From: an uncultured Bacteroidota bacterium
GTDB lineage: Bacteria; Bacteroidota; Rhodothermia; Rhodothermales; DATKEJ01
Direction of reading: 5' to 3'
DNA length: 64,000 nucleotides
Assembly (NCBI GenBank): GCA_963768715.1
Contig: CAVYJC010000007.1
Location: forward strand, 79,466-143,465
Shown here piece by piece: positions 4,696 through 49,525 of the stretch. The position numbers were made by a program, and so were the translations under genes. Position 1 is the first letter of the stretch. Each line of letters starts with the position of its first letter. Under the pieces are notes generated by a model. The model searched no databases. It had not been told where the DNA came from and saw only the letters and a list, made by a program, of their open reading frames with translations.

Positions 4696-5328
4696 TCAAT
4701 GCCCACGCGCATATCTCTTGAGAGCTCTAACCTCTGGATCGGCCGAACTCGTAGCGGCTTTCGTAGACGACCCGTTGGGAGCTGCCGAGAACGCCTCCGC
4801 TGTCGCATCAACCGACAATACCATTCCGCTTGGTTCAGTTCGGCTTCCAGAAACCAACCAGACACCGATGGTCTTCTGATCCTCTAATCCTGGACAGTCC
4901 AGATAGGCTGCCACATACTGCGAGTTTGCATGACTGGAAGATTTCAATGACCAACCGCGCGTTGTCTGGCAACCATGGTTAATGTGGCCTCCACCGGATT
5001 CAATCATGTACTGAATATACTCGATCTGCTTTGCTGTTGCTTGGTGGACGTTCAACGGTGGAACGGCCGGCCCCTGAGCGCTCTCGGGCCTCGACGGCTT
5101 CGCGGTCTGTGTTGTCGCCCCCGGAGGCTCCGGTGCTTTTCCCTCATTGCTGTTCTTGGATAAGACTATTACCGCGAGGACCACTCCGATGGCTAATAGG
5201 GCCACTTTGAATTTCCCGGTATTCGGATATTCGGGCTTGGCTGGCTCAAATGGGCAGCCGCAGTGTGGACACTGCACTGCGCGATCAGAAACCTGACTGC
5301 CGCATTCGGGACATTTTGATAAGGCCAT
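4696..5328 (-). CDS. Zinc-ribbon protein with one TM helix and an extracytoplasmic domain
   Basis: Begins MALSKCPECGSQVSDRAVQCPHCGCPF, followed by a TM segment (FKVALLAIGVVLAVIVL) and a 140-aa tail. Confidence 0.6.
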   Translation of the reverse strand: MALSKCPECGSQVSDRAVQCPHCGCPFEPAKPEYPNTGKFKVALLAIGVVLAVIVLSKNSNEGKAPEPPGATTQTAKPSRPESAQGPAVPPLNVHQATAKQIEYIQYMIESGGGHINHGCQTTRGWSLKSSSHANSQYVAAYLDCPGLEDQKTIGVWLVSGSRTEPSGMVLSVDATAEAFSAAPNGSSTKAATSSADPEVRALKRYARGH

Positions 5329-5675
5329 GGTTTCTTTCCTCTAGTGGATTGGCTATTTCAACTTCACCACACCAGCCACCTTCCCCACAATCTTCAGATC
5401 AACCTCCAGGCCAGTGAGGCTTGATTAATACTTGTCGGCGGTGGTCATCCGTCAGCAAAAGATAGGCGAAATGTTGTTGACGACTGGTTCAGACCATGGA
5501 GACTCCCTTGAGCGACCGAAGGACATCGAGTGCGTGGTTGGCCCTCAACACGATTCGAAGATTCAGACAAAGTCAAGTGGCCCAGCCCCGAAACCTCAAC
5601 CAGGACCTTAAACCATATATAAAAGGCAATATCCATAACCAATTATGATTATGGGCCTTATATCGATGCTTCAAG

Positions 5676-42453: not shown

Positions 42454-43485
42454 TCAGAGATCTGGGACGATGATGCTGCGAATGGTCGAGGTGCCGTTTT
42501 CGAGATCATCCAGAACGGTGTTGATCGATCCGGCCTCGAGAGGAACCGAACGTGAGACGAATGGCGTGAGGTCCAGCATGCCTTGCGCGGCCCATCCGAG
42601 AATACTTTCGAGCTCCGACAAAAGATGGTCGGACACGCCGATAACCTCGGCCTCGCGATTGATCAAATCCGGATAGGGCTGCACGGAAATCCGGTCGTTC
42701 GAAATCCCCGCCAGGGCTGCCCTGCCCTTCGGCGCCAGGACCTTCACGGCCAGCTCGAAAGTCTCCTTCTTGCCAATCAGCTCTACCGCAGTGTCGACTC
42801 CCCGGCCCGAGGTCAATTCACGGATCGCTTCGGCCGGCTGACTGAGACCGTCGATTGCCTCTGCACCCAAATCACGCGCGATCTCGAGCTTTCGCGTATC
42901 GACGTCGACGGCAAAGATCCGATCCGCACCCATGATCCGAGCGAGAAGAATCGCCGACATGCCCAAACCACCGCAACCGACGACGGCGACAGTTTCGCCC
43001 GGGACGAGTCGCGCCTGGCGCAGCGCATGGTACGACGTGGCCGTCGAGCACATCATGATCGCTGCGTGCAGATCCGAAACGCCGTCGGGAACAGCCACGG
43101 CGTTCCGAACCGGCACCACTACAAACTCCGCATAGCCCCCGTCTCGGTGCTTCCCAATCATCTGCCCGCTTCGACAGAATTGCTCCTGCCCGGCGAGACA
43201 GAACGAACACTGACCGCAAGTTACGAGGTAGTGAAGGCACACCCTGCGGCCGAGGAGATGGTCGTCAGTCTGGCTGCCCACCTCCTCTACAATTCCCGCG
43301 ACCTCGTGACCAGGCGTTATGGGAAGGCGGCCCACCGGCGAAGTGCCGGATCTATAGTGCGCGTCGGAGTGGCAAATCCCAGCCGCTGATACCCGGACGA
43401 GAATCTCACCGGAATTCGGCGACGGCCTTTCGATTTCGCGGCCTTCGAGCGGGGCGCCAATCTTGAGAATTTGAACCGCTTTCAT
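42454..43485 (-). CDS. Zinc-dependent alcohol dehydrogenase (MDR family)
   Basis: MKAVQILKIG starts at 43485. Also contains GICHSD, GHEVAGIV, C..C..C..G and VVGCGGLG. The 10-codon upstream extension in the track (MKTCQVSLTT) is translation of the palindromic element. Confidence 0.88.
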   Translation of the reverse strand: MKAVQILKIGAPLEGREIERPSPNSGEILVRVSAAGICHSDAHYRSGTSPVGRLPITPGHEVAGIVEEVGSQTDDHLLGRRVCLHYLVTCGQCSFCLAGQEQFCRSGQMIGKHRDGGYAEFVVVPVRNAVAVPDGVSDLHAAIMMCSTATSYHALRQARLVPGETVAVVGCGGLGMSAILLARIMGADRIFAVDVDTRKLEIARDLGAEAIDGLSQPAEAIRELTSGRGVDTAVELIGKKETFELAVKVLAPKGRAALAGISNDRISVQPYPDLINREAEVIGVSDHLLSELESILGWAAQGMLDLTPFVSRSVPLEAGSINTVLDDLENGTSTIRSIIVPDL

Positions 43486-43498
43486 GGTCGTTAGGGAG

Positions 43499-43527
43499 AC
43501 CTGACAGGTTTTCAAAACCTGTCAGGT
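43499..43527. repeat. ACCTGWCAGGT element, cluster A (two 11-mers, 7-nt spacer TTTCAAA)
   Basis: ACCTGACAGGT lies at 43499-43509 and ACCTGTCAGGT at 43517-43527. With flanks it forms a 14-bp-stem hairpin, 43497-43529. Confidence 0.9.
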
Positions 43528-43686
43528 CTAGTTAGGTCATTCACACACTTCAGACAACCGTTCGTGGATCAATTGCCACGGTTCAACGGAAACTCAAATC
43601 TCTTCGAATGGCCTCCCGTAATGGAATGAAAGGTCGAGTCAAGAGAACCCGGCTAACTCACGAACTAACCACTTCTCGAGCACGTC

Positions 43687-44166
43687 ATGACTAAATCAGT
43701 TGTAACTGGGGCGCTGGCGCTGTCTTGCGTTTTGTTCTTGTCTGCGACCGTAAAGGCCCAGAATCAGACAAACTGGCAGCTGTTCAGCAAGGGCCTCATT
43801 CAAGCGGTCGATTCCGACAATTACGGAGCGAAACTGGGCGCCATCCAGCAGATTGCAATCTACGGATCAAACCTTCACGTGAACCCGGCGGTTTTTGATG
43901 TCGTCCGCGTTTATCGCAACTCGAAGAATGAGAACGAGCGGATACTCGCACTGAGTGCATTGGCCAAGATGCGCAATGCCTGGGCGATGGACTTCCTCGC
44001 TCGAAGCGTGCCGTTCGAGAAATCGGCGCGCGTCCGGCGGCATACGATCGACGTCGTGAATGCCTACCGGCTCGGAAAGAATCTGCCGGTGGGGGTGACC
44101 GCATGGGAATCTCACTTGGTTCCACCAAGTCCAGCGAAAGTTGACGAGCTCCTCGCCTTGAAGTAG
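43687..44166 (+). CDS. Secreted HEAT/PBS-lyase-like repeat protein
   Basis: Signal MTKSVVTGALALSCVLFLSATVKAQ. The repeats GAKLGAIQQIAIYG / ERILALSALAKMRN / ARVRRHTIDVV look HEAT-like. This is a weak call. Confidence 0.5.
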   Translation: MTKSVVTGALALSCVLFLSATVKAQNQTNWQLFSKGLIQAVDSDNYGAKLGAIQQIAIYGSNLHVNPAVFDVVRVYRNSKNENERILALSALAKMRNAWAMDFLARSVPFEKSARVRRHTIDVVNAYRLGKNLPVGVTAWESHLVPPSPAKVDELLALK

Positions 44167-44245
44167 ACGATCTGCGTTGGTGCAGGTCAGGTGACGCGAG
44201 GGCGGCAGCCGGGAAACCGGGGCCGCCCTTGTCGTTTGTTGAAAA

Positions 44246-44274
44246 ACCTGACAGGTTTTCAAAACCCGTCAGGT
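44246..44274. repeat. ACCTGWCAGGT element, cluster B (two 11-mers, spacer TTTCAAA, one mismatch)
   Basis: ACCTGACAGGT lies at 44246-44256 and ACCCGTCAGGT at 44264-44274. Confidence 0.9.
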
Positions 44275-44354
44275 TTGCCAAGTTGTGGCTTCCGGACGTA
44301 ACGTGTCGCCGCCAGTCGTAACAAACGCGGCGCCGGTTGGTCGTCGCCAATGCG

Positions 44355-45923
44355 ATGGAATCTGAATCCGCCCAAACTGACGGCACGAACGAGACGGGAA
44401 ACCAGACGATCGTCATCGATCATCTCTTCGGGTTCCATCGCGGATCCCGGCAGCTCGTGGCCGGAGACCGGATCACTATCGGATCGTCATCAAACGCTAC
44501 GATCCACTTCCCGGCCGCCCATGAGCCGGCCGTCGCACCCCACCACGCTGCGATTGTCCGCCACGACGGCGTCTGCGAGCTCATAGTCGCGGACGGCGAG
44601 CATGCCCAAGTCAACGGAATCGAGACGACTCGGCACCTCCTGAGTTCTGGCGACGTCATCGTCGTCGGTGCGCACGGCCCGGTGCTGAGATTCCGCGTGT
44701 ATGATGGTATCCGAAATAAATACAAGACTATACCTGAAGCCATTGCCGATTGTCGGGACAGTGCAAGGCATCAGAAGAACTCCGTTGTCGGACGAGCAAT
44801 CGCCTTCATCAGGGCGATGCCTCATGAGATGCTTCGCCAGACAGCCCCGTGGACCAGAAAGATGTCCTTCGCCCTGACCACGCTGCTCGTCTTCAGTACG
44901 ATCTATCTCGTCGTTCGAAGCTTCCAATTGGCAGGGGAGCTAGACGAGCAGGCGGAGCAGGTCCTTTCGCTCATCCAAGCCAACGACGAATCGATGACCA
45001 ACGATGAGCTGCGAGTCCTCCAGAGTGAGCTGGAGTCGAAGCTCTCGACTACCCTTGAGCGTGTCGAGGCGCTCGAGGCACTGACGGCGGCAGGCAGGAA
45101 GGTCGTGGCCTCATCTGCCGAATCGGTGATGCTCCTCCAGGGTGAATACGGATTCGTCGGACCCGAAGGGCGGGAGCTCAGATTCGTTATCACCCCGGGC
45201 GGACAGCCGCTGATGGATCGCAAGGGGTATCCCGTCGTTCGCCCTGACGGCACGGGCGAACCGTACCGAAGTCAGTTTACCGGAACCGGGTTTCTGGTAA
45301 GCTCCGGAGGTCTGGTGATAACCAACCGGCACGTGGCCGCCCCGTGGGAATTCGAGCCCAGCGCCGTCGCCGTACTCAGCATGGGATACCAGCCGGTGAT
45401 GAACCGAATGATCGGATATTTCCCCAACGTCTCGAAAGCATTCGACATCAAGCTCGTCCTGGGTAGCTCTACCGAGGATCTGGCACTCCTGCGTTGCGAG
45501 GGCGACCCGAAAGACATCCCACCGCTCCAACTCGCTGACGCGTCCGTCTCCCCCGGCGACGAGGTCATCGTCCTTGGCTATCCGACCGGCATTCGGGCCC
45601 TCCTCGCTCGAACCGACCTGCACTTTGTGAATCAACTTCTCGAGGAGAGCAAGCGAGACTTCTGGTACATCGCAAGGCGTCTGTCTGAGGAGGGGCGCAT
45701 CGCACCGCTAGCCACGAGGGGAATTGTCGGCCAGGTAACCCCAACCGCCGTCGTTTACGATGCGGAAACGACACACGGAGGCAGCGGAGGACCCGTGATG
45801 TCCCTGAGCGGAGAGGTCGTGGCCATCAACACAGCGATCCTGACAGATTTCGGCGGTTCGAACCTGGGCGTCCCAGTCGACGCCGCCCGCCGCCTCCTCG
45901 ATCTGGCAACGCGGCCGGAGTGA
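44355..45923 (+). CDS. FHA domain - TM helix - coiled coil - trypsin-like (S1C/DegP-type) serine protease
   Basis: FHA region: ITIGSSSNATIHFPA...HAAIVRHDGVCELIVADGEHAQVNGIE...LSSGDVIVVG. TM helix: MSFALTTLLVFSTIYLVVRSF. The stretch ELDEQAEQVLSL...LESKLSTTLERVEALEAL is heptad-like. Protease triad contexts: TNRHVA, DLALLR and THGGSGGPV. Confidence 0.8.
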   Translation: MESESAQTDGTNETGNQTIVIDHLFGFHRGSRQLVAGDRITIGSSSNATIHFPAAHEPAVAPHHAAIVRHDGVCELIVADGEHAQVNGIETTRHLLSSGDVIVVGAHGPVLRFRVYDGIRNKYKTIPEAIADCRDSARHQKNSVVGRAIAFIRAMPHEMLRQTAPWTRKMSFALTTLLVFSTIYLVVRSFQLAGELDEQAEQVLSLIQANDESMTNDELRVLQSELESKLSTTLERVEALEALTAAGRKVVASSAESVMLLQGEYGFVGPEGRELRFVITPGGQPLMDRKGYPVVRPDGTGEPYRSQFTGTGFLVSSGGLVITNRHVAAPWEFEPSAVAVLSMGYQPVMNRMIGYFPNVSKAFDIKLVLGSSTEDLALLRCEGDPKDIPPLQLADASVSPGDEVIVLGYPTGIRALLARTDLHFVNQLLEESKRDFWYIARRLSEEGRIAPLATRGIVGQVTPTAVVYDAETTHGGSGGPVMSLSGEVVAINTAILTDFGGSNLGVPVDAARRLLDLATRPE

Positions 45924-45928
45924 AAGAA

Positions 45929-45975
45929 ACCTGACAGGTTTTGAAAACCTGTCAGGTCTTGAAGCCCTGTCTGGT
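45929..45975. repeat. ACCTGWCAGGT element, cluster C (three 11-mers at 18-nt period)
   Basis: ACCTGACAGGT lies at 45929, ACCTGTCAGGT at 45947 and the degenerate CCCTGTCTGGT (9/11) at 45965. Spacers are TTTGAAA and CTTGAAG. Confidence 0.85.
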
Positions 45976-46833
45976 TTACGGCAGCGACTTCACCCGGTCC
46001 CGGAGTCGCTCCCATTCGGCCAGATAGCGCAACAGGTGCGCACCGTTCTGGCGAGCGCCCATCTCTCGCAGCAGCCTGCGGACGTTCTCCTGCTCCTCTT
46101 CGTACTCCTCCTCATCGAAGAACCCTCCGAAGTGCGCGAACCTGAGCCAAAGGAGATATGTGGTGACCGCATCGCACTCATTGTAGGCGACGATGTCGCC
46201 GAGTTTGCCCTCAAGCCAGCGATCGGCTACCTGCTGCCCATCGATCTCGAACTTGCCAGGGATACCCGACAGGGTCGTGAATTGATTGAGCGACGGTGCG
46301 CCGCGTCCCCAACCGCTGACAATGTCCATCAGATCGACGCTGCTTTCTGAGACCCGTGAAAAATAGTCGGGGCCCTCCCAGGGCTTGTCCGGTCGCTTTG
46401 CAAACGAGCCCGCCTCGATGCCATTCACAATCGCCCGCTGGATCAGAATCTTGATGTCCGCATTCATCGAGTTGAAACCGACTAGTTGCGGCTTCTTCTG
46501 ACCGACCGCATCGAGGAACCGCGAGATAATCTCCGCTTCCGATGCATTCTCGGGATCGGTGGGATCGTGCGGCAGCGAGACAAGAGTAAGTCCGACGCTC
46601 TTGTCGTCTCGTACGCGACGCTCAATCGCGGCGATGGAGACGATGCGACACAGCACCATCTTGAGAAACGGCCTGGGCTCCTCTTCGGTGCCCCCGCCCA
46701 TCGCCCACATATGCTCCATCACGGAGCGATCATCGAGATTGTCGTCGAGACCGTAAATCAGCTTGCCGGCTGTAGGATCGGGAACCCATTCGATATCGAA
46801 AGCCCAAACAGTCGGCTGTATCGTTTTAAACAT
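45976..46833 (-). CDS. DEDDy 3'-5' exonuclease related to the PolB exonuclease domain (COG3298 / DNA_pol_B_exo2-like)
   Basis: Exo I is WAFDIEWVPD, Exo II is VGFNSMNADIKIL and Exo III is YNECDAVTTYLLW. The start overlaps the upstream ATPase gene by 8 nt. Confidence 0.75.
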   Translation of the reverse strand: MFKTIQPTVWAFDIEWVPDPTAGKLIYGLDDNLDDRSVMEHMWAMGGGTEEEPRPFLKMVLCRIVSIAAIERRVRDDKSVGLTLVSLPHDPTDPENASEAEIISRFLDAVGQKKPQLVGFNSMNADIKILIQRAIVNGIEAGSFAKRPDKPWEGPDYFSRVSESSVDLMDIVSGWGRGAPSLNQFTTLSGIPGKFEIDGQQVADRWLEGKLGDIVAYNECDAVTTYLLWLRFAHFGGFFDEEEYEEEQENVRRLLREMGARQNGAHLLRYLAEWERLRDRVKSLP

Positions 46834-49525
46834 CTTCTTTCACTGTGGAGGTATCGTTAGCAAGTTCAATGAGTTGCGCCTCCACTACGGACTGAATTTC
46901 AGCGGCCAGCCACGGATGGCAGGTAAATACAAAGACCTGCCTGCGCGCCGCCAGGTCCTTGAGAATCTGATATCCGAGCATTCTGCGCTCCTGATCCCAG
47001 TTGACGAACACCTCGTCGAGAAATGCCGGAAGCCGCTCCTGATTTTCGTCGAGATGATCCATCAGGGCGAATCGGATGGAGAGGTAGATCTGGTCCCGCG
47101 TCCCCTGACTTAGAGACTCGTCAACGGTAATGGGAAAATGCGAAGCCTGCTCGAAAACCATGAGGTCGCCCGAGTCGTCCTGCAGCATGAGACGGACGTA
47201 GCGTCCGGCGGTAATCTTCGAGAGGTATCCGCTCGCTATGCGGATTACGTCGGGCTGGTGTCGAAATCTGAACTGCTGATCGGCGCGCCGGATGACGTTC
47301 GCAAGGAGCACGAGTTCGTCGCGTCGTCTCCGCGCATCGTCCATCTTCTCGTCGATAAGCGCAATCTCGCTTTCGACGTCCGCCACGGTCCGGTGCTTCT
47401 GCAGCTGTTGCAGCTGTGCGCGCTTTCGGGCGTGGCGAATGGATTCGAAATCGATCTTCTTGAGGATCTCGTCACGCTTCGCATCCCGTTCCATGCGCGC
47501 CGCCTCAGTGTACGAATTAAGTTCGTCGTCGGAGAGCTTGTCGATGTCGCTCACATAGTCTCGCCAGGTTGGATGATCCTGATCCAGCAAACTCATGTGG
47601 TGGTCAGCCATGATCTTGGACCTCCGCATCTCTTCGAGCTTCGCGGCGCCCTCCTCCTTGTCGCCGTCCCCAAGTTTTCGCAGAACGGCCTCAATCTGAG
47701 CGATTTGATCCTGCAGCGCCTGCTGATCGGATCGAATCCGTTCGCGGTCTCTGCGGAGCTTGAAAAGCCGCTGGCGCGCGTCCTCGGATTTTTGAATCCG
47801 ATCGTCTGCCTCCTCGAGACGATTCTCGAGCGCACTGACCGTCGTAAGCACGTCGAAATCATAGGGGACATCGACGGACTTCAGCAGCTGACGCATCTCC
47901 CGACGATTTGTATCGAGCAGATTGACGATCGTCCCAGCCCGTTTCGTGCGTTCACGCCGACGCTCGAAGAGCTGGTACAGCTGCAGCAATCGTGCGACGA
48001 GATCGCGGCCCGGTGTCTTCAGCTGGTCCTCTTTGACATGCAGCGGTGCGAGGAGTCGCGCGACCTCTTCGCGGTGCTCGGAGCAGCTCTGCTCTAGTCG
48101 GTCCAAGCCTAGAATAATCCTAGACTTACGCAGTCGACGCTGTTGACTGAGTGTCATTGCAAGCCAGATCACGCCTCCTATCGCGATGGCCACACCGGCG
48201 GCAATCATGAGATTTTGGGGCTGCATGATCCCGAAGGCTGCGACGACAATGCCTGCGAGCACGATCAGAATCGGAAATATGAACTTGCGGGAGCCCAATT
48301 GCGTTGCGAGATGCTGATCGCGAGCGCGTGCCGAGGCCAGTTTCTCCTCCGCATCCTCGAGCCGGAGAACATGGCTCCTGAGCTTTTCGGCTTCCATCGT
48401 CGGGATTTGCCTGAGCAGATCCATTTTGCCTTCAGGCGTGGCCAAGCTCTCAACGATGACGTTCATCCTGTAGCGGATCTCGCAAAGCTCGATTCCCACA
48501 CCTCTCAGGTTGGCGAGGTTGGCTTCATGCGCCCCGGCCCTTCTCGACCACGCGTGAATCTCGTCAGCATGCGTGAGGATGAGGTGGTCGTGGTCCTGTG
48601 CCGCTCCGCGTTCAAGCTCCCGCTCGTCCTCTTCTTCGGCGATATCGTCGATCTGCTTGCTGTACTCTTCGTCTCGTCGATGCCACTCGTCGAGAATCGC
48701 CACGGGATTCTCGGGGATACTGGAAAAGGACTCGACATTGTCGGATGCGCTCATCAGCCCTTTGATCTTACTCCAGCGCACGGCGATTGGCCCGATCCGA
48801 TCGTGATGCCGCATTACAGCCTGGAGTTGGACCTGTTCGTCTCGAAGCAGTCGAAGCTGTTCGGCATGCTGACGAACTTCGTCATTGAGCGTTTGGAGCT
48901 CCGACTCCCGTTCTCGGGATTGCGCGAGCTTTTCGACCCACTCGTCTCGCTCCTCACGAAGACGTTTCGACAACGGCCTGCCGCGTCGATCGTCGCGCCA
49001 TAGATCATTCGCCTCACGATCGAGCTCATCCAGCACCGATCGAGCGGATCTCAGAAAATCGAGATTGAAACCGGCGAGCAGCCGATCCTGCACGTCCGCC
49101 CAAGCACGATCCTTGAGGGCCGTCATATCGTGGAGATCGAGGGCATAGATAGCGTCGAAAACGCGGTGCGAAACAAACTCCGCCGCGGGAACGGGCTTGT
49201 TTCTCAGATCCATGTCCAGATCGCTCCCGTTCTGCAACCGCCCCTGGGGCGTTCGAGTCAGTCGTCGGGTGACCGACACCGTCTGGCCCGCGCCGAGTAC
49301 GAGATCCGCCGAACCTTCCAACGACGTACCGTCTCTCGGAGCGTAGCGGTGTGATTCAGGACTGGTAGGATAGATGCCGAACAGCATCGTCTGGAGAAAC
49401 TGGAAGAAGGTCGATTTTCCAGCTTCGTTTGGTCCGAGAATGACAACGAGGGCATTATCAATGTCCCGAATTTCTCGATCACGAAAGTGACCAAACGCCA
49501 TCAGTTTGCAGTCCCGGAAATACAT
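46826..49525 (-). CDS. SMC/Rad50-like AAA ATPase of the YhaN (SbcE, COG4717) type with two central TM helices
   Basis: Walker A is GPNEAGKSTFFQF. Long coiled-coil stretches flank the central FIFPILIVLAGIVVAAFGI / MIAAGVAIAIGGVIWLAMTL. The signature is LSQGTRDQIYLSIRFAL and Walker B is PAFLDEVFVNWD. Confidence 0.8.
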   Translation of the reverse strand: MYFRDCKLMAFGHFRDREIRDIDNALVVILGPNEAGKSTFFQFLQTMLFGIYPTSPESHRYAPRDGTSLEGSADLVLGAGQTVSVTRRLTRTPQGRLQNGSDLDMDLRNKPVPAAEFVSHRVFDAIYALDLHDMTALKDRAWADVQDRLLAGFNLDFLRSARSVLDELDREANDLWRDDRRGRPLSKRLREERDEWVEKLAQSRERESELQTLNDEVRQHAEQLRLLRDEQVQLQAVMRHHDRIGPIAVRWSKIKGLMSASDNVESFSSIPENPVAILDEWHRRDEEYSKQIDDIAEEEDERELERGAAQDHDHLILTHADEIHAWSRRAGAHEANLANLRGVGIELCEIRYRMNVIVESLATPEGKMDLLRQIPTMEAEKLRSHVLRLEDAEEKLASARARDQHLATQLGSRKFIFPILIVLAGIVVAAFGIMQPQNLMIAAGVAIAIGGVIWLAMTLSQQRRLRKSRIILGLDRLEQSCSEHREEVARLLAPLHVKEDQLKTPGRDLVARLLQLYQLFERRRERTKRAGTIVNLLDTNRREMRQLLKSVDVPYDFDVLTTVSALENRLEEADDRIQKSEDARQRLFKLRRDRERIRSDQQALQDQIAQIEAVLRKLGDGDKEEGAAKLEEMRRSKIMADHHMSLLDQDHPTWRDYVSDIDKLSDDELNSYTEAARMERDAKRDEILKKIDFESIRHARKRAQLQQLQKHRTVADVESEIALIDEKMDDARRRRDELVLLANVIRRADQQFRFRHQPDVIRIASGYLSKITAGRYVRLMLQDDSGDLMVFEQASHFPITVDESLSQGTRDQIYLSIRFALMDHLDENQERLPAFLDEVFVNWDQERRMLGYQILKDLAARRQVFVFTCHPWLAAEIQSVVEAQLIELANDTSTVKEDV

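Follow-up and report, generated by a model that had tools for sequence, protein, structure and literature searches.

Sequences of the repetitive extragenic palindromic (REP) type are commonly regarded as partners, specific to a species or genus, of their REP-associated tyrosine transposase (RAYT). We analyzed a 33-nucleotide (nt) palindrome of this kind that occurs at three sites in a 64,000-nt stretch of DNA (the window) from an uncultured Rhodothermales bacterium of the phylum Bacteroidota (contig CAVYJC010000007.1, positions 79,466 to 143,465). The sites lie around two genes, one encoding a 159-amino-acid (aa) HEAT-like protein and the other an FHA domain protease. An earlier note on the letters of the window had offered three explanations: operators for a regulator of these genes, REP-like RNA stability elements, or recombination sites delimiting gene cassettes. 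The evidence presented here indicates that the three sites are very probably copies of one REP-type element, presumably mobilized by a RAYT, with no role for the genes that they bracket.

RAYT-linked REPs normally carry a 5' GT[AG]G foot, and another superfamily carries a CGTC tag; REP-like families without a tag have been acknowledged (PMC3733652). In Escherichia coli, the residues that contact GTAG are W94, Q95, W99, E100, H101, and R104 (Fig. S11, PMC6006769). RAYT subclasses have been described from phyla that include Bacteroidetes and Cyanobacteria; their REPs flank the transposase gene and also lie in frame within it (Quentin et al. 2018, PMC6006769). TnpA-Y1 subclass 2.4, which corresponds to Bertels group 4, has the motifs NH[IFV]H and YIxNNP in proteins of ∼194 aa from Cyanobacteria, Bacteroidetes, and various phyla, and an in-frame REP within the transposase gene is known for it; subclass 2.6 (Bertels group 5) is found in Bacteroidetes and has atypical hairpins (PMC6006769). 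According to Bertels et al. 2017 (PMC5581495), group 4 members are common among Caldilineae. Full-text literature searches with 9-mer and 12-mer strings of the present element returned only primers and unrelated matches, none of them this REP sequence, and Nunvar 2010 makes no mention of Bacteroidetes, of names beginning with Flavobacter, of Salinibacter, or of Chloroflexi. REP/RAYT systems are already known; new here is a REP-type hairpin that lacks the GTAG foot and has an unusually widely conserved core.

Anatomy of the 33-nt palindrome

The repeat unit is a 33-nt palindrome of the form A-N-A-CCTGACAGG-TTT-NNN-AAA-CCTGTCAGG-T-N'-T, with a 15-bp stem and a 3-nt loop. Across 128 copies, the three base pairs outside the core are Watson-Crick paired in 97%, 92%, and 91% of cases, respectively, and pairing at the fourth position outward is at background (24% versus 30% expected); the loop triplet varies freely. 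Because complementarity runs exactly 3 bp past the core and then stops, the unit length was set at 33 nt. The second outer pair covaries (GC in 72 copies, AT in 34, CG in 8, and TA in 4) and is paired in 92% of copies versus 44% expected by shuffling. Since this covariation links the outermost ends of the 33-mer, the element probably acts as a single long hairpin in single-stranded nucleic acid, a pattern that supports one hairpin over two protein half-sites and rules out two mini-hairpins per doublet. In doublets spaced 18 nt apart, the center bases of the 9-mers were complementary in every case seen (T..A in 5, A..A or T..T in none, and A..T in 141, most of these preselected by the search pattern). 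A rarer mirror variant with the center bases swapped (CCTGTCAGG...CCTGACAGG), still self-complementary, was seen at L028:2309, L040:1237 and 1291, L209:6300, and L212:8168 (contig handle, then position).

Within the window, a scan with the 33-mer consensus found three sites (A, B, and C; Table 1) and none beyond these in 64 kb, with 0, 1, and 0 mismatches, respectively. The earlier note had counted seven copies of the 11-mer ACCTGWCAGGT. All seven are where it placed them, but only five are exact (43499, 43517, 44246, 45929, and 45947), the 11-mer at 44264 (ACCCGTCAGGT) having one mismatch and that at 45965 (CCCTGTCTGGT) two. Its 18-nt spacing, its spacers (TTTCAAA, TTTGAAA, and CTTGAAG), and its remark that the motif is absent elsewhere in the window proved correct. 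A search allowing one mismatch in the 11-mer gave 7 matches versus 0.56 expected, a number that none of 100 shuffles reached; the one additional match, at 48500, is intragenic and looks like chance. The 11-mer pairs can indeed fold as hairpins, as had been suggested, but it had been missed that each pair is one palindrome: at site A, 16-nt arms that are 100% complementary enclose a single central base. Predicted folding energies as single-stranded DNA were −16.4 (A), −12.2 (B), and −14.5 (C) kcal/mol, with z scores from −7.0 (A) to −3.9.

In comparison with E. coli REPs, the stem of this element is perfect, without a bulge, and the core is identical across several phyla rather than species specific. 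Like the REPINs of Pseudomonas (Bertels and Rainey 2011), the element joins two inverted palindromic units into one hairpin, with singlets as remnants, and has its own sequence population in each genome alongside a single-copy transposase. Unlike REPINs, which are doublets of ∼70 to 110 nt with a spacer, the whole element, at 33 nt including a 3-nt loop, is roughly as large as a single REP, and its sequence is conserved well beyond the genus. The subterminal hairpins of IS200/IS605 are similar in being single-stranded DNA hairpins for a Y1 HUH transposase that leaves no target-site duplication; here, however, the hairpin is the entire dispersed unit and carries no transposase gene. In 127 copies with enough flank, flanking direct repeats matched the shuffled expectation, and a GTTAGG direct repeat around copy A was rejected as a target-site duplication because none rose above chance in those copies.

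Partner transposase and distribution across phyla

An exact-core scan with CCTGACAGGTTTNNNAAACCTGTCAGG, covering one genome per species, returned at least 119 loci. All-against-all clustering of the open reading frames (ORFs) near these loci yielded one recurrent small family, present at 8 loci. Its members are ∼190 to 230 aa long, with an HUH motif (NHFH) and a tyrosine motif (YIHNNP) that are both invariant, and they match the NCBIfam model NF047646, "REP-associated tyrosine transposase," with E values of 1e-14 to 4e-16. A profile of the family matched E. coli TnpA-REP (PDB 4ER8; E = 9.5e-7); when a single sequence was compared with solved structures, the result was noise. Relatives in databases run into the thousands and carry the JGI label "REP element-mobilizing transposase RayT." At five loci (L003, L004, L065, L074, and L109), hairpin doublets lie on both sides of the RAYT gene at distances of ∼10 to 70 nt, and at L114 a hairpin lies on the readable side of the gene; by our estimate, ∼0.2 of 119 loci would have a single-copy gene beside the element by chance. 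A hairpin on both sides of the RAYT gene is the REPtron arrangement.

The element also occurs inside its putative transposase gene. A further hairpin copy lies in frame within the RAYT gene at L109, L074, L003, L001, and L066, where it encodes ...DLTGFQNLSGL... between the HUH and tyrosine motifs (L109:1180-1206 in ORF 810-1505 and L074:5300-5328 in ORF 4961-5596, both on the minus strand). At exactly 11 codons, the 33-mer has no stop in two of three frames on either strand (RPDRFSKPVRS, DLTGFQNLSG). In Balneolaceae, the insertion looks old, because the RAYT consensus retains a degenerate in-frame form, PxLxGFxxLxG. Other long ORFs contain in-frame copies as well (L091:2306 and 4976, L084:1908, L052:2486, L069:1984, and L107:5450); by eye, their products resemble a polyketide/nonribosomal peptide megasynthase (twice), a restriction-modification protein, a dihydroorotase, MurD, and a membrane glycosyltransferase, and the frame in all five contigs is DLTGFxNLSGL. 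The element is tolerated in frame inside proteins, its own transposase included.

Among the matches listed, carriers in Bacteroidota belong to Flavobacteriales, Bacteroidales, Cytophagales, Chitinophagales, and Saprospiraceae, with further carriers in Rhodothermales and Balneolaceae; in Chloroflexota, to Anaerolineae, Caldilineae, Ardenticatenaceae, and Chloroflexia; in Gammaproteobacteria, to Beggiatoaceae/Thiotrichaceae and Methylococcaceae; and in Betaproteobacteria, to one metagenome-assembled genome. Several loci were listed for single assemblies (7 in CSMAG_1672 and 5 in Parabeggiatoa B5_G6), and the element is a short, mostly extragenic palindromic repeat in multiple copies per genome; it was also found on six IMG/VR contigs. 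Crude ORF calling placed 88 of 110 classifiable copies between genes. Among these 88, convergent spacers hold 30% (17% in the background), tandem spacers 58% (66%), and divergent spacers 12.5% (17% by number and 22% by length), and the median distance is 20 nt to a gene 3' end, after the stop codon, compared with 107 nt to a 5' end. This 3'-end preference, together with the convergent enrichment, is the classical REP pattern. Across the 119 or more loci, in several phyla, the flanking genes are unrelated to one another; the scatter at gene ends irrespective of function that the earlier note had named as a refutation, pointing to a generic REP or terminator, is therefore what was found.

Two further arrangements were seen at these loci. 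In Beggiatoaceae, the 33-nt hairpin forms the center of a larger inverted repeat, visible within 40 nt on either side, whose arms include GGAATGAGRATTTAATAA or GGAACGTGCATGAAATAA (L010:3627, L016:1240, L043:7495, L093:3828, and L037:6156, with a second type at L071:4345, L086:6846, and L038:3657); this looks like a composite miniature inverted-repeat transposable element around the REP. Tandem arrays of 11-mers or whole hairpins, with periods of 24 to 27 nt or 51 nt, occur at L026:3012-3132, L061:15-97, and L209:12951-13079, the last on an IMG/VR "viral" contig.

Like the REPs of E. coli and its bacterial interspersed mosaic elements, then, the present element is a short extragenic palindrome that lies mostly after gene 3' ends as a singlet, an inverted doublet, or a cluster, and it flanks a single HUH/tyrosine (Y1) transposase gene whose family matches 4ER8 and NF047646. 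The transposase differs from E. coli TnpA-REP in that W94, Q95, W99, E100, H101, and R104 align to F, E, K, R, K, and E/N. It resembles subclasses 2.4 and 2.6 in its NH[IFV]H and YIxNNP motifs, its length (∼190 to 210 aa), and its occurrence in Bacteroidetes and scattered phyla, and the hairpin recalls either the symmetric "double-foot"-like hairpins of subclass 2.4 or the "atypical secondary structures" of subclass 2.6. The GT[AG]G feet described for the REPs of subclass 2.4 are missing here, and the family has FE rather than WQ at the W motif. The family appears to be kin to subclass 2.4 or 2.6, between which it could not be assigned by phylogeny, and the supplements of Quentin 2018 hold no taxon list that would place it.

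The transposases have diverged to about 44% identity while the 24-base core has remained identical across phyla. One tentative proposal, which we regard as possible rather than probable, is that the pair represents a distinct "untagged" REP-RAYT lineage, without the GTAG foot and without the GTAG-binding residues, whose core is identical across Bacteroidota, Rhodothermales/Balneolaceae, Chloroflexota, and Gammaproteobacteria. Such a lineage would imply either an unusually strong constraint on the REP sequence or repeated horizontal spread of the REP-transposase pair. A single REP core common to several phyla would offer a convenient system for studying hairpin recognition by a Y1 transposase that has no GTAG guide, and a test of the horizontal movement of REP-RAYT pairs. 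In four Flavobacterium species (L004, L008, L065, and L081), the RAYT locus occupies one and the same position, downstream of two clustered genes, and we take the large protein encoded there to be a methylmalonyl-CoA mutase. The RAYT gene is intact in L004 and frameshifted in L065; L008 has a remnant of 49 aa, and in L081 the gene was not detected. This points to vertical inheritance followed by decay.

Insertion history and alternative explanations

Same-species contigs (L122, L120, and L121 at 99.2 to 99.7% identity, L123 at 94.9%, and L127 at about that level) retain the sites that fall within their span. Differences seen are a C/G flip in the loop at site A, two substitutions at site B, and, at cluster C, a 1-nt indel in L120 and L122 and a rearrangement in L123. 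At L123:2905-2960, which is flanked collinearly and corresponds to window positions 45927 to 45977, there are three units in the same orientation, ACCAGACAGGT twice and then ACCTGACAGGT; the arrangement resembles the outcome of an inversion, or of a conversion, inside the cluster of palindromes.

The closest other relatives, L203 and L204, encode FHA-proteases 77% and 71% identical to that of the window. Both keep the gene order (amidohydrolase, kinase/PPase, TetR, ADH [alcohol dehydrogenase] on the minus strand, a 160-aa gene, and the FHA-protease), and L204 additionally keeps the exonuclease, SMC-like, and metallophosphatase genes, all on the minus strand. The element is in none of the three corresponding spacers of either contig, an outcome that the earlier note had named as a refutation. 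At site B, the empty site is visible: L204 reads TTGAAA directly followed by TTGGCCA, and the window reads TTGAAAAA, the REP, and then TTTGCCA. Neither the element nor the neighboring genes were found in 78 contigs that encode proteases 35 to 51% identical. As judged from these comparisons, the window copies are insertions between the genes and not control or cassette signals. The palindromes mark recent insertions, tell nothing of how the HEAT-like and FHA-protease genes are regulated or whether they form a module, and have no demonstrated tie to what these genes do.

In the mechanism that we propose, the 33-mer would be a non-autonomous DNA element whose single-stranded hairpin is recognized, cut, and rejoined in trans by the RAYT. 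The three copies would have entered neighboring spacers after the split from the 71 to 77% relatives and before the strains at 95% identity separated. Because three copies within 2.5 kb are improbable and all three share a loop class, local copying is suggested; the tight clustering would then come from local spread and not from a role for the two genes. Any effects on transcripts, for which the copy that precedes the ADH start by 11 nt and the hairpin between convergent genes are possible sources, would be by-products.

Several points weigh against this account. Mobilization is modeled on E. coli TnpA-REP, the sole case shown biochemically. The family scores below the 80-bit equivalog cutoff of NF047646, its match to Pfam Y1_Tnp is weak and below the curated cutoff, and the structure predicted for a RAYT from a 20-sequence alignment had a confidence (pLDDT) of 48.9, too poor for a test of the fold. 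No RAYT homolog was detected in the 64-kb window by tblastn, leaving the cognate transposase of the source organism unproven; the top RAYT matches were from Flavobacterium and Balneolaceae, and none was labeled Rhodothermales. A RAYT gene beside the element was found only at Bacteroidota and Balneolaceae loci, not in Chloroflexota or Beggiatoaceae. Unlike the REPs of E. coli and other RAYT-linked REPs, the element has no 5' GT[AG]G (or CGTC) foot; its feet are A-N-A and T-N'-T, and positions beyond them are unconserved. The absent foot does fit the loss of GTAG-binding residues in the RAYT family. Finally, the empty-site comparison spans 23 to 29% protein divergence.

The alternative that survives best, although unlikely, is that the palindrome serves chiefly at the RNA level, as a terminator working in both directions or a 3'-end mRNA stabilizer, and is kept for that function. 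The position of copies shortly after stop codons and their enrichment between convergent genes agree with such a role, as do the identical hairpins that the palindrome yields on both strands, and E. coli REPs are reported to stabilize mRNA and to terminate transcription (cited in PMC6006769). However, the GC-rich stem followed by a U-tract that defines an intrinsic terminator is present at none of the three copies: the tails read TCTAG, TTTGCC, and TCTTGA, bearing out the earlier note on this point, and a terminator scan called 44218 to 44231 and no REP copy. The 159-aa gene already has its own terminator just before copy B, conserved in the window, L203, and L204, and copy A is placed in the promoter region of a divergent gene pair. 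A core of 24 exact bases common to phyla goes beyond what a generic terminator needs, and relatives do without the copies. Rfam gave no match, whether the window was scanned at the gathering threshold or positions 43300 to 46200 at E ≤ 1. The suggestion of REP-like RNA stability elements is thereby supported in kind: the element is of REP type, but this identification comes from the RAYT link and the insertion behavior and not from RNA stabilization.

It is less likely still that the three sites are a chance cluster of a genome-wide repeat whose position has no further meaning. REPs are dispersed, and nothing ties the copies to the function of the two genes; nevertheless, random placement of three copies in 64 kb would bring all of them within 2.5 kb in only ∼0.5% of cases (our estimate), and all three have the T-C/G-A loop class that is found in ∼19% of copies elsewhere.

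The two remaining explanations are excluded because relatives keep the gene order without the element, and we consider either one highly improbable. Operators, in the form of iterated sites through which a dimeric regulator would coordinate the HEAT-like and FHA-protease genes, would account for the near-palindromic 11-mers and for sites in all three spacers around the two genes, but an operator would be conserved with the genes that it regulates, and the syntenic relatives with 71 to 77% identical proteases lack it at all three sites, as do the distant protease homologs, which lack the neighboring genes too. Moreover, the 33-mer stands beside unrelated genes in several phyla, its outer pair covaries, unlike a protein-contacted base, and the motif that is conserved in the ADH/159-aa-gene spacer is a different one (AACCGTT...). 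Recombination sites (attC-like) delimiting mobile cassettes would fit the bracketing of two single genes here and of one small gene by pairs elsewhere, but that small gene is always the RAYT itself, both window genes are in place with the same order and neighbors in relatives that lack the element and so have not been gained or lost as site-bounded units, GC content is flat across 38 to 52 kb, and no integrase was found among the neighbors in a Pfam scan of the window genes.

Neighboring genes and further palindromes

The placement of the sites relative to genes agrees with the earlier description. Upstream of the ADH start (43485), the first 11-mer is 13 nt away and site A itself 11 nt; site B is between the HEAT-like and FHA-protease genes, 77 nt past the stop of the former and right behind its terminator; and cluster C begins 3 nt past the FHA-protease stop, abuts the exonuclease stop codon (45976 to 45978), and occupies the whole 52-nt spacer between these convergent genes. 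The "HEAT-repeat gene" of that description is in the order given, but its HEAT_2 match is weak (Table 1).

Table 1. Features at the three sites of the window; gene positions are taken from gene calls on a 99.2%-identical contig
Feature	Position	Strand	Description
Zn-dependent alcohol dehydrogenase (ADH)	42454..43485	-	Pfam ADH_N, ADH_zinc_N; 343 aa
REP copy A	43497..43529	.	AGACCTGACAGGTTTT-C-AAAACCTGTCAGGTCT; perfect 33-nt palindrome in the divergent ADH/159-aa-gene spacer
159-aa gene	43687..44166	+	Weak Pfam HEAT_2 (E = 1.3e-3), below curated cutoff; nothing at default threshold
Intrinsic terminator of 159-aa gene	44201..44245	+	GGGCGGCAGCCGGGAAACCGGGGCCGCCC then TTGTCGTTTGTTG; separate from the repeat
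REP copy B	44244..44276	.	AAACCTGACAGGTTTT-C-AAAACCCGTCAGGTTT; one mismatch (T>C), one stem pair broken
FHA + trypsin-like protease	44355..45923	+	Pfam Trypsin_2 and FHA; gene call; 522 aa
REP cluster C	45927..45977	.	Perfect 33-mer at 45927-45959 plus degenerate third unit CCCTGTCTGGT at 45965-45975
PolB-like 3'-5' exonuclease	45976..46833	-	Pfam DNA_pol_B_exo2, E = 9e-59

Downstream of the protease in L203 (7693-8006), at the position that corresponds to cluster C, lies another palindromic repeat, in which two copies of CCCCGCAATKMATTGCGGGG enclose palindromes of the AACCGTTTCAACGGTT type. The spacer downstream of the protease may therefore be a hot spot for palindromic elements. A TetR gene adjoins the ADH gene. 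In the ADH/159-aa-gene spacer, a motif containing AACCGTT (window positions 43566 to 43600) is, unlike the REP, conserved in both relatives (L203:5178-5408 and L204:9130-9298), which makes it a better candidate than the REP for an operator or promoter element.

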